NCBI GenBank assembly: GCA_016211085.1
Contig: JACQSY010000015.1
Coordinates: 12,041-76,040, forward strand
From: Acidobacteriota bacterium
GTDB lineage: Bacteria > Acidobacteriota > UBA6911 > RPQK01 > JACQSY01
DNA length: 64,000 nt
Direction of reading: 5' to 3'
Under the pieces are notes generated by a model that worked only from the letters and a program-made list of their open reading frames with translations, had not been told where the DNA came from and did no database searches. Positions 586 through 56,360 of the stretch are shown in pieces. The stretch's first letter is position 1; the number at the start of each line of letters is the position of its first letter. The translations under genes and the position numbers were made by a program.

Positions 586-2541
586 TCAGGAAAAGAAGGC
601 GAAGTGTTCAAGAAGATTCTGCAACCAGATCGCCCACTTGAGCGCCCACTTTCGTGCAGCCGACTTACTCGCCGGTTTCCGTACCCAGCTGTTGTTGGTG
701 TAATTCACGTCCAGCGCCAGCTTCCCGTCGGGATCAACTTCAACCAGCCTTATGGGAGACTTCTTGCGAAAATCAAAGCGCGTCCAGCGTGACTGTCCAT
801 CCCAGATCTCACGGACTACCGTGGCGTCGGAGAACTCCACCCTCACTTCAACGGGGAAAACTCCTTCTCCCCAGCGCCTGAGATGCACGGACTGCAGCCC
901 ATTGCCGAGATCCGTAACCGCATCGACAGAATAATCAAAGACGTGTGAGCTACGGTAAGTCTGGTTCCAGAACCATGAGAAATCTTCCCCGGCCACCTCA
1001 TGCACCACGTTAAAGAAATCTTCAGCTCGAGGATGCTTGAAGCGCCATCGGGAGAAGTACGTTTGAAGAATAGAGCGGAACTTGCCCCACCCCAGGTGTC
1101 GTTCCAGCGTGATCAGCATCAGGTCCGGCTTTGTATACGAATTCACCGTATACGCCCCGGGCCCGTAAACACGGGTGAGGCCGGTTGCATCCGCAGAACG
1201 ACCGCGCCGCGCCGCCGGCCCATACTGCCATGCGGGCGTCGCCATCACGTCCAGTTTAAGCTCTGATTCAAAAGTGCCCAGCCCGCTGGCGGGGTGGTCC
1301 GATTGGAATATTCCTTCGAAAAGCAGCGGGATAAAACCTTCGAAGTAACGGCGCACCACCGGGGCAGACCCGAAAGCCTCACGCATGATCTTGCGAGTTG
1401 AGTACTCGGTCAACCCTTCGTCCAGCCAGGCATCCTCGAACTCATTATTGGCGACAACCGCATAGAAAAACTGGTGGCCGGTTTCATGGACTGTGACCTC
1501 CTCGGGGACCTGCGATCCAGGGAGGTTCAGCCAACGAGTGCCCCCGGTGATCAAAGTCGGGTACTCCATACCCCCGCTGTTGGAAAGATATGCGGGATCG
1601 ATAATAGTCAAATGTCCGTACGGATATTCTCCTAACCATTCGCCAAAGTATTTCAAAGCCGTCTTCGCGGCGGTGAAGTACCTGCTTTCCTGCCCCAGAT
1701 GATCCAGCATCAACAGTAACCGCAGATCGACGGCTTTTAAGTGCGGGTGCTCGAATCGGTCGCGAAATTCATAGAAGTCTGGACTGGCCACCCAGGCAAA
1801 ATCAATCACCTGTTCCTGATAAAAATGGTGCGTAGCCGTGCCATCTTTGTTTTGGCGATGCGACTGCTGCCTGCCCGTTGCTCCTACGATCCAACCCCCG
1901 GGAACCACCAGCCGAACATCGTAGGTGCCGAATTCAGAAAAGAATTCCGTTTGAATGAATTGGCGACAGTTCCAGGCTCCGGTTTTTTCAAAAACTCCCA
2001 GTTTGGGAAACCATTGGGCAATAAAGAAGTACTCTCCACGAGAGCCGGTCCGGGCAAAAGGACGGGGAACCTTGATTTTGAATTCGACTTGAATCTCAAT
2101 GGTTTCGCCAGGCTTCACCGGCCTGGGGAGTATAACCTTCATAACGGTCCGATCATGCGGATTGCCGTCATCAGGCTGGATATATTGAATGGCTGAAGTG
2201 AGGTCCAATTCTGCAAATCCATTGCCTGGCAGGATCTTCAGCCGACTGACGTCAATGGCAGCCCACTCGTTGGGACGCCACTGCTTGAGCGCTTCTTCCC
2301 TCATGCGGTTTGAATTAAGGAAGGAGCTTTGCGGGTTCAACCATGCATTGTAGTAAAGGTGAAATTGCAGATCGGAGGCGGCAAACGTCGTCTTATTTGA
2401 CCAGCGAATGTGAGCTGAACCGGACACGGTTCGAGCGGCAGGATCCAGGCGCGCCTCCAGCTTGTAGTCAGCAGCCCATGCCTGGCTCAGTGCCGCCGAA
2501 GCAACAAGAATAAGAAGGACAATCCAGGTAGGGTCGCGCAC
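586..2541 (-). CDS. M1-family zinc aminopeptidase, secreted
   Basis: GGMEY and HETGH-x18-E motifs; signal peptide (WIVLLILVASAALSQAWA) directly after GTG 2541; the longer ORF-track N-terminus runs through a repeat element and the upstream gene. Confidence 0.9.
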   Translation of the reverse strand: MRDPTWIVLLILVASAALSQAWAADYKLEARLDPAARTVSGSAHIRWSNKTTFAASDLQFHLYYNAWLNPQSSFLNSNRMREEALKQWRPNEWAAIDVSRLKILPGNGFAELDLTSAIQYIQPDDGNPHDRTVMKVILPRPVKPGETIEIQVEFKIKVPRPFARTGSRGEYFFIAQWFPKLGVFEKTGAWNCRQFIQTEFFSEFGTYDVRLVVPGGWIVGATGRQQSHRQNKDGTATHHFYQEQVIDFAWVASPDFYEFRDRFEHPHLKAVDLRLLLMLDHLGQESRYFTAAKTALKYFGEWLGEYPYGHLTIIDPAYLSNSGGMEYPTLITGGTRWLNLPGSQVPEEVTVHETGHQFFYAVVANNEFEDAWLDEGLTEYSTRKIMREAFGSAPVVRRYFEGFIPLLFEGIFQSDHPASGLGTFESELKLDVMATPAWQYGPAARRGRSADATGLTRVYGPGAYTVNSYTKPDLMLITLERHLGWGKFRSILQTYFSRWRFKHPRAEDFFNVVHEVAGEDFSWFWNQTYRSSHVFDYSVDAVTDLGNGLQSVHLRRWGEGVFPVEVRVEFSDATVVREIWDGQSRWTRFDFRKKSPIRLVEVDPDGKLALDVNYTNNSWVRKPASKSAARKWALKWAIWLQNLLEHFAFFS

Positions 2542-52163: not shown

Positions 52164-54908
52164 TCATTCAACAACTGTAGCCACCCTCTGTGCCGGAACA
52201 ATGGACATGAGTTCGAGGTCATCTGCAAAAAAAAGTTCCAATCCCACCAGAGGTTGGTCCGAAGTGATACGAATGAATCCATCCAACATGGGAGGCAGGT
52301 CGGGAAATAACTCTTTTAGTAGCCGTATCTCCCGGGCTCCGGCAGGAATAGCAAACCTTCGATTGGCCTTCTTTGTTCCCAAGGCGTCAAATACCTCCAT
52401 TGTCACGTCAGCGCTCAAGCCACCCGGATTGACCAAAGCAACTCCCGTAGAAAGTCCTAGGCTTTGTGCCACGTGGGAGAAGACAAAATCTGAAAGAAGG
52501 ACCGGCTGCAGCGGTATTGCCGTCATAGCTTTTCCTGAAAACGCCTGGATCTCGATGTTGCCGGCAATGCCTGTATGACTGCTCTCGACTAAAACCCAAC
52601 CGGAAACTGCCGTGCCGTTGTCAGTTAAACCAAAGAGTTCCGCTATGTCGCGGCGGAGCGACTGACCCGGTTCCATTTCAAGCGTCACTATCGCCAGCTG
52701 CTGTCCCTGATTCCCCTTCAGCGTGAGCTGAACGGACGCTTTTTCGGAGCCTACATAAACCAGGGTTAGAAACGTGTTGGAACCGTTAAAAAGAGCGACC
52801 TGAGGCGCATATTGCGTCTTGTCAAGCCGCGCCCTGGACCCGGTCAGGGGAATGGCATTCAGGCTCGCCAGCCGCTCAGAATCAAAGTATCGCTCAAAGG
52901 CGATCACCCCTTCCCGGCTCTGGAAGACCAGAAAGCCGGATTGAAAGTCCTTGAAAGCATTCTCAGAAAATAGGCCCTCTTGCTTATCATCGGCTGGATT
53001 GGGGTCACGAACCAAAGCAACCAAACTCGCGTTCCCCACCAGCGAACGGTCAATTTCCTCCAGCGTGGTGCCCCCCGAACTTACAAGAGCAATGCTAACG
53101 GTTGTCGGGTTCAAATTGGGATTCACTACTACCACCTCGGTTTGAAATCCGTCAGTCACACGGACTTCCGGCAGTAACAGCTCAGTTCCCGTGAAAAATG
53201 ACGCCAGACCCCCATCGAGGCGCTTTAGAGAATGATCTCCAGTCATGAAAAAGCTGCTGAATCGAGGGCTTTCGATATCGAATTCAGCCCATCCTTGCAG
53301 GCTTTGTCCGGCAGACACGTTAAACAGACCGGCTGCAGTGCGTGCGAGTTGGTTTCCCGGACTCAGGCGAATTCTGACAGGATTGGTAACCTCCACAACC
53401 TCGGGGGTCTCCCGATTGTCCGTGAAAACCGCGCCTTCGATGTCAAACCCCTTCAAGAGAATCTCAGATTCCAAGCCGGAATTGTTAGTTACCGCCACCC
53501 CGGTAAACCACTGGTCGGTCGCAAGCAGGCGAGGTATCACAAAACGTTGAGTTGGCCTCAACAAATCAACCGTGTTGGCGTTGAAATTCAGAACGGTGAT
53601 CACGCTGCCATCAGGCGACAAGGAAACATCAAGCGGCGCCGCGGAGACCGCAAAAGTGACCCCTCCCGAGGTGCGCTCCACAGTCTTGCCCACCTTGACA
53701 GAACGGATGAACTCCCCCGCCCCCATATGAAAGACCAGTAAAACGTCATCAATCGGAGCTGGAATGTAAAGCAAAGAGCCATCTGCGGAGAATACCGGAC
53801 GCGTCGTGGACTTAAAATCCCCGAAAGGAACGCTAAAAACCTTCAACTCCTGCGTGGCAGGCTCAATAAAAACTAGGCTAAGGCCCGTGAGTACCACAAA
53901 TGACTTGCCATTGGGTGTCGTTCCTGAATAAGCCGGCAATCCTCCAATCTCAAAAATTTTCACCACTTCACCCGTTTGCAAATCAAGCATCAGGGCGTGG
54001 TCTGTGGCCAAAGCGGGCACCAAAGCGAACCCCGAGGAGCTATTCTCGCGATCTGTGATAAGACCGAATCTTCCATCGGCTGTAAGCGCGACGCGGTCGG
54101 AGGCAAAGAAATCATGTACCGGTTCATCGGCTTTCACCTCTGGCGCGATGGAAGTGCGTACAGAAAAATTGGCAGTGTCGATGATTTGGACCGAATCAGG
54201 AACCTCACGCCGGTCCACAAAGGGCGAGCCCACCAGGACCGCCGCAAGAAAACTGTAGTCCGCCGCCATGGTCAGCGCACTGGGACGGCTTCCCTCTTCC
54301 AGTTTGAGACGAGGAGTAATCTCAGTGGCGTCGTCCACCCTGAAACGAATGATCTCGTCTGTACCTGAAGAAGCCACAAAGCCTGTCTTGCTGTCCGCTG
54401 AGAAAACAATGTTATTCGCAAAGGAAAAAAGAACGTTGGTCAACTCCAGTGCCTTGACTTGTAGAGTCACTGTTTCAATGACCGTGATGGAGCCAATCAG
54501 TTTCCCCTGATTCCTGCCCGGCTGGGGTAGATTATCGGAAAAGAAGAGCGAAACTACCGCCAGTTTTTTCCCGTCCGGCGTCAAAGTGATTAGCGCGGGG
54601 GTTTTCCCTACCGGGATTAAATGGGTGATGCGACCTGTACTCAGGTCAAAAACCGCCACTTGATCGGATCCTGTGTAACTCACAAAAGCCCTGCCGCTCT
54701 CTGGAGGAATCACGACATTTGGAGAAAAATTCAGGTCCGTGCTCTCCGAAGCTTCCGAAAGCGGGATTGTGTTGATGTCAAACTTGAGTTCCTGTTGCTC
54801 GGCTGATGGATCAACCGTTGCCACAAGTCTTTGAGCGCTGGCTGAAACTCCGGAAAAAAGAAGAAATAGAAATGAGAATGCAAAGCAATAATACATAAAA
54901 GTGCACAC
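52164..54908 (-). CDS. Large secreted protein: YVTN-type beta-propeller plus repeated C-terminal beta domains
   Basis: Signal peptide; IPVGKTP..ITLTPDG, FSADG, LSPDG blades; repeated F/STG(V)xxxN modules. Confidence 0.75.
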   Translation of the reverse strand: MCTFMYYCFAFSFLFLLFSGVSASAQRLVATVDPSAEQQELKFDINTIPLSEASESTDLNFSPNVVIPPESGRAFVSYTGSDQVAVFDLSTGRITHLIPVGKTPALITLTPDGKKLAVVSLFFSDNLPQPGRNQGKLIGSITVIETVTLQVKALELTNVLFSFANNIVFSADSKTGFVASSGTDEIIRFRVDDATEITPRLKLEEGSRPSALTMAADYSFLAAVLVGSPFVDRREVPDSVQIIDTANFSVRTSIAPEVKADEPVHDFFASDRVALTADGRFGLITDRENSSSGFALVPALATDHALMLDLQTGEVVKIFEIGGLPAYSGTTPNGKSFVVLTGLSLVFIEPATQELKVFSVPFGDFKSTTRPVFSADGSLLYIPAPIDDVLLVFHMGAGEFIRSVKVGKTVERTSGGVTFAVSAAPLDVSLSPDGSVITVLNFNANTVDLLRPTQRFVIPRLLATDQWFTGVAVTNNSGLESEILLKGFDIEGAVFTDNRETPEVVEVTNPVRIRLSPGNQLARTAAGLFNVSAGQSLQGWAEFDIESPRFSSFFMTGDHSLKRLDGGLASFFTGTELLLPEVRVTDGFQTEVVVVNPNLNPTTVSIALVSSGGTTLEEIDRSLVGNASLVALVRDPNPADDKQEGLFSENAFKDFQSGFLVFQSREGVIAFERYFDSERLASLNAIPLTGSRARLDKTQYAPQVALFNGSNTFLTLVYVGSEKASVQLTLKGNQGQQLAIVTLEMEPGQSLRRDIAELFGLTDNGTAVSGWVLVESSHTGIAGNIEIQAFSGKAMTAIPLQPVLLSDFVFSHVAQSLGLSTGVALVNPGGLSADVTMEVFDALGTKKANRRFAIPAGAREIRLLKELFPDLPPMLDGFIRITSDQPLVGLELFFADDLELMSIVPAQRVATVVE

Positions 54909-55004: not shown

Positions 55005-55340
55005 TCAAATGCTTTCTGAGATTTGAAATTCGAGTCGTTTAACAAGTACACAATTCCACAACGAATTGATGCTTTGAAGCAGTAATGAACCGAGACTTGC
55101 AAGCTGGTCTTGCCAAACCGGCGATGCCACCGAAAGGATTAGAGTGCCGTTCTGTAATCCGGCAGGAAGGCACTTGCGGGCAACATCCGCCCCTACAATG
55201 CGAGGCCAGAGCTCTTTCAAAAAAATCAGGCTTACTTCTTCATCGGCTGCGATTGAGCTCAAAAAATTTGAAAGAAACGCTCCAATCTTTTCCGGCTGCC
55301 CTGATCGTGCTTCCACGAGTAGATTGTTGGATCTGGTCAT
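55005..55340 (-). CDS. DUF721/DciA-family protein
   Basis: WPRIVG..VA..C.P..L.NGTLILSV.SPVW..QL. Confidence 0.8.
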   Translation of the reverse strand: MTRSNNLLVEARSGQPEKIGAFLSNFLSSIAADEEVSLIFLKELWPRIVGADVARKCLPAGLQNGTLILSVASPVWQDQLASLGSLLLQSINSLWNCVLVKRLEFQISESI

Positions 55341-55343
55341 GGC

Positions 55344-56270
55344 TTAATATGCCCCCGGCGGAAGCTTTGCAGAGAGTTCCTGCTGTTGTCGCAGCAACTC
55401 GGCATTCTCTGGAACTCCGGCTTTCAACTCTATGAAATCGGGTTCAACTTTCTGAATTTTTCCGCCCTCGTCAAAATAAAAACTCAGCTGTCCCAGGTAT
55501 TGACCCTTATCCACCGTGGGTAGAATGATCGCATTGTTCACGCGTTCAGGAGTAGGAATGATAACTCTCTTTTCCGCCAGAAGAATGGCCCTTATTTCAG
55601 GGTGCCGGATGGCCAACTTCGTAGCCGTACCTCGTGAAATTGCCCCCAACAAAACAAGAAAATCCACACGGTCCTTGAGCGACGTCTTGGCCCGGTCCAA
55701 TGCCTCGTCTGGGTCCAGAGCGCTAAAACCCGAATTGGGCTTTACACTGTCAGGACTGCTCAGACCCAGGAATCCAATACGGATATTCTTGCTGAGTTTC
55801 ATTTCAGCTCCCGGGATTTCCAAAACTGTCTGAACAGCCGGGGCCGGGAGCGATTTAGATCGCGGGCCCAGGTTAGTCGAAATGATGACGGTGCGCCTTG
55901 CCGCTTGTGAGAGAGTTTTCCAGTAAAAGAGGTCCTCGGGTGCAAGGTTCAAAACGTGAAGAGGCAAGGCTGAAAGACTTTCCATCATCAACGCGTTCAC
56001 TAGGTCCGCATTCGGGCCGGGGGGCTTCAGATAATTTCCACTATCCACATGAAGCACATAAGCTCCCGTCCTCTTCTCATAATCATGCGCATAGCCGGCT
56101 CGCCGAGCCAGCCCCCCTGTGGGATTATTCTTTCAGCCACATGGTTCAAAATTGCCTGCAATAAAACCGGTGAAGAACAGGGTGAGGATTCGGGGCGGCG
56201 CAGCAGTGGCTTGAAAAAAAATCAGGCCCAACCCCACCAGGGCGAGAAAAATACATCCCGGTCGGCGCAT
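55344..56270 (-). CDS. UshA-like exported selenoprotein (in-frame TGA at 56133-56135 read as Sec46), 308 aa
   Basis: ATG 56270 gives MRRPGCIFLALVGLGLIFFQATAAPPRILTLFFTGFIAGNFEPCG*KNNPTGGLARRA, in frame with the ORF-track 237-aa ORF (LHVDSGN...); CxU motif; hairpin 3' of the TGA. Confidence 0.88.
56094..56135 (-). promoter_or_regulatory. Putative bacterial SECIS element
   Basis: mRNA UGA-AAGAAUAAUCCCACAGGGGG-GCUGGCUC-GGC-GAGCCGGC: 8-bp stem, loop starting with G, about 28 nt after the UGA. Confidence 0.7.
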
Positions 56271-56360
56271 GGGCTCATTTTAGTTGAAGACCGTGTATCA
56301 GTAAACGCGTACGAATCTTGACAAAAGATTTCGACTCGTTAGATAAAATGGGTTGATTCT

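Follow-up and report, generated by a model that had tools for sequence, protein, structure and literature searches.

Gene organization and reading frame

The window, the whole 64,000-nucleotide stretch of DNA that we analyzed, carries on its minus strand a short UshA-like selenoprotein gene at positions 55344–56270. This gene lies in a block composed of a divergent HNH endonuclease gene, the selenoprotein gene, the gene for DciA, and a gene for a 914-aa protein. The same block occurs at 10 of 27 close loci; in other close loci, a GRDB-like protein or an M28 peptidase adjoins the gene instead. The neighborhood provided no functional clue, with three unrelated contexts found among the 27 close loci. 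The DciA gene (55005–55340, PF05258) starts 3 nt past the selenoprotein stop, an arrangement kept in 10 loci, and the 3-nt gap suggests that the two genes, although unrelated in function, are co-transcribed. The 914-aa protein encoded downstream of DciA (52164–54908, minus strand) has only a weak match to DUF5719 (E 3.6e-07), and its position is conserved in 10 of the 27 close loci with 34–46% identity. Seven loci with Cys in place of Sec (L027, L029, L032, L035, L036, L037, and L041) have a divergently encoded protein of 142–163 aa upstream. The one from L036 (160 aa, 926–1408, minus strand), which is the only one scanned, matches just positions 196–345 of GRDB (PF07355), the selenoprotein B family. 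This GRDB-like neighbor may be another selenoprotein that ORF calling has shortened.

The complete coding sequence (55344..56270, minus strand) starts at ATG 56270, ends at the TAA at 55346–55344, and encodes 308 aa with a single interruption, an in-frame TGA at 56135–56133. The table-11 ORF call is truncated, covering only 55344..56057 (minus strand, 237 aa) from a GTG start at 56057. Re-reading the frame bore out the earlier note, which had proposed that the frame stays open upstream of this start through one TGA to ATG 56270 and that the TGA sits inside a C-G-U motif. The read-through product contains the motif F-E-P-C44-G45-U46-K, in which Cys44 is encoded by TGT (56139..56141, minus strand) and is a Cys in all 56 rows of the family alignment, and Sec46 is encoded by the TGA (56133..56135, minus strand), assigned from a Cys/TGA alignment column and from identical contigs of two other samples. 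In public protein sets, the gene is present as a 234-aa piece and a separate 45-aa N-terminal fragment (P0101). Among nine neighboring genes, TGA is the ordinary stop in five and occurs in frame in none of those, which indicates that the organism uses the standard code and that the TGA at 56135–56133 is an exception. The gene is genuine but mis-annotated, and it encodes a Sec-containing, probably exported protein of a previously described family.

The upstream extension also adds a putative signal peptide, as had been claimed for it. Residues 1–23 (56202..56270, minus strand) are predicted from sequence reading and hydropathy to form a Sec-type signal peptide. The N-terminus, MRRPGCIFLALVGLGLIFFQATA followed by A, has a basic n-region (MRRP), a 15-residue hydrophobic core with 11-residue Kyte-Doolittle means up to 2.9, and an A-T-A site, and the aligned homologues begin with a hydrophobic segment too. 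Export of the protein is thus likely.

Homologues and the selenocysteine codon

We found 73 homologues in a search of a 5.8-billion-protein collection. When the full-length ones were aligned with the query, all 52 had Cys opposite the TGA, and C44, G45, and the U46 position were invariant across these 52 proteins and the query. The other 21 of the 73, including the 234-aa piece of the gene itself, are without the N-terminal motif region. This fits gene callers halting at TGA, and these sequences may be Sec forms shortened in this way or fragments from contig edges.

The genomic relatives were collected by searching 400 genomes of the same phylum and the organism's own genome with stops read through, which gave a match at E ≤ 1e-20 in 67 of the 401 genomes. 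Twenty further regions were fetched, and every match was then placed on the family profile. In 58 distinct genomic relatives, the U46 column holds TGA in 31, TGC in 19, TGT in 8, and nothing else; one further match without this column, L052, stands outside the count. The expectation that homologues would carry either Cys or TGA here was therefore borne out (27 Cys and 31 TGA), with no Trp or variable residue at the position, and the coding sequence is conserved on both sides of the in-frame TGA. The 31 Sec rows include L042, whose genome (G049) is marked as unpublished; leaving it out gives 30 of 57. A single-protein locus search returned 11 loci, the nine closest of which are Cys forms, probably because the search pattern included the Cys; the Sec forms came via the genome search.

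A quick maximum-likelihood tree of 56 rows, unrooted and built with the motif column removed, placed the product of 55344–56270 in a clade of 25 short proteins (SH-aLRT 100) from its own order, of which 21 are Cys forms and 4 are Sec forms. The rows outside this short clade are nearly all Sec forms. At least seven changes between Sec and Cys occur on the tree, or three when only strongly supported branches are counted. A Cys-rich clade amid Sec rows, together with several changes of state, fits an ancestral Sec that was repeatedly replaced by Cys, as far as the sequences can tell. One genome of the same order (G015) holds two paralogues, a Cys form (L044) and a Sec form with the motif C-D-U (L065, 483–1391).

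The SECIS hairpin

Downstream of the TGA, the codons for G-L-A-R-R-A-G-Y contain a hairpin (56113–56093, minus strand), GGCUGGCUC-GGC-GAGCCGGCU, with a 9-bp stem and a GGC triloop in which G comes first. The hairpin folded alone has an energy of −14.3 kcal/mol. The stem begins 20 nt and the loop 29 nt after the A of the UGA, leaving 28 nt between the UGA and the loop. According to the Fig. 2 legend of PMC13188914, a bSECIS element has a loop of 3–9 nt, a stem of 4–16 bp, a distance of 16–37 nt from the UGA, and a minimum free energy of −7.5 kcal/mol or lower, and the loop has a G at position 1 or 2. All four published bSECIS constraints hold for this hairpin. What had been noticed by eye as a GC-rich stem-loop with a G-initiated loop at SECIS-typical spacing is thereby supported, and covariation among relatives supports it further.

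The comparison of Sec and Cys forms carries this evidence. Of the 31 Sec forms, 27 retain at least 8 of the 9 pairs in register, compared with 3 of the 27 Cys forms. When the 31 Sec forms are aligned, 90% of the cells are paired, a value that falls to 30–49% when the partner is slid by 1–3 columns. Two-sided changes occur at 5 of the 9 pairs, and the compensatory cells number 34 compared with 8.7 ± 2.5 in shuffles, none of 500 of which reached 34; kinship inflates these covariation counts, yet the Sec forms represent many families within the phylum. In the four Sec forms that do not have the hairpin in register, another G-initiated hairpin lies a few nt upstream. The protein motif G-L-A-R-R-A-G is common to Sec and Cys forms, and the hairpin is built from its codons. 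This amounts to a natural experiment in which genes with Sec encode the LARRAG motif with a hairpin and genes with Cys encode it without one.

Less specific measures did not detect the element. A single-sequence fold of the 71-nt stretch after the motif was no better than shuffles (z −0.44), which makes the evidence for the hairpin comparative. Sec forms (mean −21.1, n = 11) and Cys forms (−22.1, n = 27) are also not distinguished by total fold energy over the 63 nt downstream of the codon; the register-specific hairpin alone tells them apart. An Rfam scan of 55900–56350 at E ≤ 10 gave no SECIS family and one chance snoRNA-like match.

Selenocysteine machinery and other readings of the TGA

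Given that the earlier note implied Sec machinery elsewhere in the genome, we searched the organism's own assembly, a draft of 152 contigs that is 87% complete. The search recovered a tRNA-Sec gene (selC; 72.6 bits, called SeC(tca) by ARAGORN), selA (574 bits), selB (383 bits), and selD (366 bits), all four above the curated cut-offs. The selD gene, which lies outside the window (G000:C67:41968-42888), itself has one in-frame TGA, pointing to at least one other selenoprotein gene in the genome.

With these data, two other readings of the TGA can be weighed. The first takes it as a nonsense mutation in a pseudogene, or as the boundary between a peptide of 45 aa and a separate protein of 237 aa starting at GTG 56057. 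Gene callers do split the gene in this way, and a purine-rich stretch precedes GTG 56057. The protein also departs from the clade consensus in 7 of 71 strongly conserved columns (V37I, D172S, D210A, S251P, R255K, R257Q, and D289N), and D172S, D210A, S251P, R255K, and R257Q affect polar residues common to at least 49 of the 52 full-length homologues. These departures mark an unusual member of the clade and could reflect relaxed constraint. However, the stretch from the TGA to the GTG, 26 codons long, covers the family's most conserved motif, P-x-G-G-L-A-R-R-A-G-Y, and a product starting at GTG 56057 would miss both the signal peptide and C-G-U. In addition, TGA is found at the same column in 30 other relatives together with a co-varying hairpin, and the genome has Sec machinery. 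A broken or divided gene is therefore highly improbable. A tie between the loss of Asp172 and Sec use was considered separately and set aside as unproven, with a non-Asp residue in 13 of the 21 N-terminally cut homologues but in 2 of the 4 close Sec forms read from DNA.

The second reading holds that a TGC or TGT was turned into TGA by a sequencing or assembly error, and it draws on the draft state of the genome and on the Cys found in most close relatives. Against it, contigs of samples X2 (record 1) and X3 (record 5) span the Sec codon with 0 differences, with the limited independence that comes from all DNA runs containing the stretch belonging to one study; the possible source run, X1, gave no contig at this site. 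Moreover, all 9 hairpin pairs are formed here, whereas at least 8 are formed in only 3 of 27 Cys forms. We consider such an error extremely improbable and read the TGA as a Sec codon. The listed runs containing the stretch include no RNA run.

Predicted fold and the lost metal site

The AlphaFold2 model, computed from a 53-row alignment, has a pLDDT of 90.8 and a pTM of 0.88, and its only weak part is the C-G-U loop (residues 41–50, mean pLDDT 52). Foldseek against the PDB matched the model to the E. coli c4898 nucleotidase, UshA, CD73, and SoxB with E values of 4e-19 to 1e-15, TMq of 0.65–0.74, and 13–19% identity. In the model, the N-terminal domain has the α/β-sandwich fold of the 5′-nucleotidase/UshA/SoxB group, which agrees with the UshA-like fold initially proposed from the sequence.

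Calcineurin-like metallophosphoesterases bind their metals through the motifs DxH, GD, GNH(D/E), H, and GH. We mapped these ligands by profile alignment to the PDB nucleotidases 3ivd and 5h7w. The nucleotidase D-x-H corresponds to F36-I-A38, G-D to G78-N79, G-N-H-E to A-P-E-D113, the single H to A210 (an Asp in the family), and G-H-x-H to E-K-R-V. The profile alignment and the column counts thus agree with the degeneration of DxH, GD, and GNHE originally read from the sequence, and the ligand motifs of active metallophosphoesterases were not found in the protein. Among 56 relatives, the former metal-ligand columns are almost never His, indicating a dead phosphoesterase scaffold family-wide. 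In the same rows, C44, the Sec/Cys column, and D113 (Asp/Glu) are kept throughout, and D76 (Asp/Glu) is kept in all but two, both of which have Asn. On the aligned columns, the loss of the metal site is a property of the family and is not peculiar to the gene at 55344–56270.

This bears on whether the protein could be an active metallophosphoesterase or nucleotidase in which Sec is incidental. The fold is in favor of such an activity, as are weak profile matches to 5′-nucleotidases and 2′,3′-cyclic phosphodiesterases, and some sources name homologues as such enzymes. On the other hand, every His/Asn ligand motif is replaced, Pfam matched no family in the protein, Metallophos included, and no C-terminal nucleotide-binding domain is present. 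An active enzyme of this type is very unlikely. With both the dimetal ligands lost and the C-terminal substrate domain absent, we interpret the protein as no phosphoesterase.

Relation to the known UshA-like selenoproteins

UshA-like (COG0737) selenoproteins with a CxU motif were described from the GOS metagenome, where 76 sequences had Sec and 92 had Cys (Zhang & Gladyshev 2008, PMC2398784), and two later reviews (PMC9312934 and PMC13188914) include them as well. No function for them is stated in the passages available from these three sources. Together with the NCBIfam model NF041198, this literature is in line with the statement of the earlier note that the CxU family is described yet uncharacterised. 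The 308-aa protein scored 96.3 bits against NF041198 (UshA_like_PCGU; cut-off 275), matching profile positions 6–276 of 519, and 34.6 bits against NF049981 (UshA_like_Sel_2; cut-off 140), matching positions 1–104 of 262. All 53 aligned members of the short clade fall below the NF041198 cut-off (best E 3.8e-34).

The haem domain and the C-terminal nucleotidase domain were said to be missing, and indeed no CXXCH and no 5′-nucleotidase C-domain was found in the 308 aa, the profile match stopping at position 276. Three long forms of about 480–510 aa from other Acidobacteriota (L058, 1342–2874; L066, 312–1850; and L054, 1066–2499) scored 266–278 bits on NF041198 and combine the C-G-U domain with four C-terminal CXXCH motifs, and their C-terminal domain has weak matches to cytochrome c554-type models. 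With scores slightly short of the 275-bit cut-off, two of these three may be left without a name in annotation. The organism's own genome has three further NF041198 matches, which were rejected as ordinary multihaem cytochromes encoded elsewhere and not positional partners of the gene.

Discussion

Taken as a whole, the data are very probably best explained by an exported selenoprotein of 308 aa, made under the guidance of a SECIS element, with a dead 5′-nucleotidase-type scaffold and a candidate redox site at C44 and U46, and the interpretation of the earlier note holds on nearly every point. In this explanation, the UGA at 56135–56133 is recoded to Sec by SelB and tRNA-Sec, guided by the hairpin 20–40 nt downstream that is made of the conserved G-L-A-R-R-A-G codons. 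The mature protein retains the N-terminal α/β-sandwich, with the dimetal ligands lost and no C-terminal substrate domain. The sole candidate reactive center is the invariant Cys44-Gly-Sec46 loop, located after the strand that carries DxH in true nucleotidases. Cys44 and Sec46 may form a reversible selenenylsulfide for the periplasmic handling of electrons or of a substrate of the sulfur/selenium type. Its redox partner would presumably come in trans because the tetrahaem cytochrome c domain fused to the longer relatives is absent here.

The invariance of C44 and U46, their position in the loop past the first strand, where nucleotidases hold metals, and the four-haem fusion of the long forms favor a periplasmic redox site. 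For the specific claim that the CxU site has a redox role, which draws on sequence comparisons, we see the chances as evenly balanced. C-G-U could instead be a binding site, with the protein acting as a periplasmic carrier or scavenger that holds a soft metal, a metalloid, or a sulfur/selenium species between thiolate and selenolate. Binding would be consistent with the invariance of Cys44 and of Sec/Cys46, with the presence in the fold family of SoxB, an enzyme that works on a sulfur adduct carried by a protein, and with the lack of a haem domain and of a conserved redox neighbor in the short form. However, the fusion of the long forms to a tetrahaem cytochrome suits electron transfer better than passive binding, and no transporter or resistance genes lie nearby. 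A binding role is possible, though we think it rather unlikely.

Returning to the redox site, we also put forward a speculative and frankly doubtful extension, in which the haem-less short UshA-like proteins would be a distinct functional class. Metal-dependent hydrolysis would have given way in them to chalcogen chemistry by a Cys-x-Sec selenenylsulfide, acting on periplasmic sulfur/selenium species or on a partner protein, with Sec ancestral and repeatedly replaced by Cys within one Acidobacteriota order. If true, this would be a new catalytic use of the metallophosphoesterase fold.

The family itself is known, having been in selenoprotein lists since 2008 and having curated NCBI models. What this work adds is a short haem-less clade, comparative proof of the SECIS element, and the family-wide loss of the metal ligands. 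The annotation of a gene publicly held as a 234-aa piece and a 45-aa fragment is corrected, and both NCBIfam models for UshA-like selenoproteins are found to miss the entire short clade, with 53 of 53 examined members below the cut-off. The question of the role of UshA-like selenoproteins is also sharpened: the metal site is dead throughout the family, and long forms are joined to four haems, which together point to redox chemistry at the CxU loop.

Among the known systems, NF041198 is homologous to the protein in its N-terminal 5′-nucleotidase-like domain. The P-C-G-U/C motif is at the same column with P-x-G-G-L-A-R-R after it, both Sec and Cys forms occur, and the SECIS register is shared with Acidobacteriota members at or near the cut-off. 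In contrast, the protein is without profile positions of about 277–519, where the long forms that we examined have four CXXCH motifs (in the C-terminal part, about 345–519), and it belongs to a separate clade of proteins of about 300–330 aa in which Cys forms are dominant (21 of 25). PMC13188914 lists UshA-like selenoprotein family 2 with a CxxU motif. NF049981 resembles the protein distantly over the first 100 residues or so and has a similar profile length (262 positions), whereas the score is below the 140-bit cut-off and the motif here is CxU rather than CxxU. With UshA, CD73, and SoxB (PDB 3ivd, 1ush, 2wdc, and others), the protein shares the N-terminal metallophosphoesterase-domain fold and the G-G-x-A-R-R segment. 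It differs from them in its low identity (13–19%) and in the absence of the dimetal ligands and the C-terminal domain, and it has a Cys-Gly-Sec loop.
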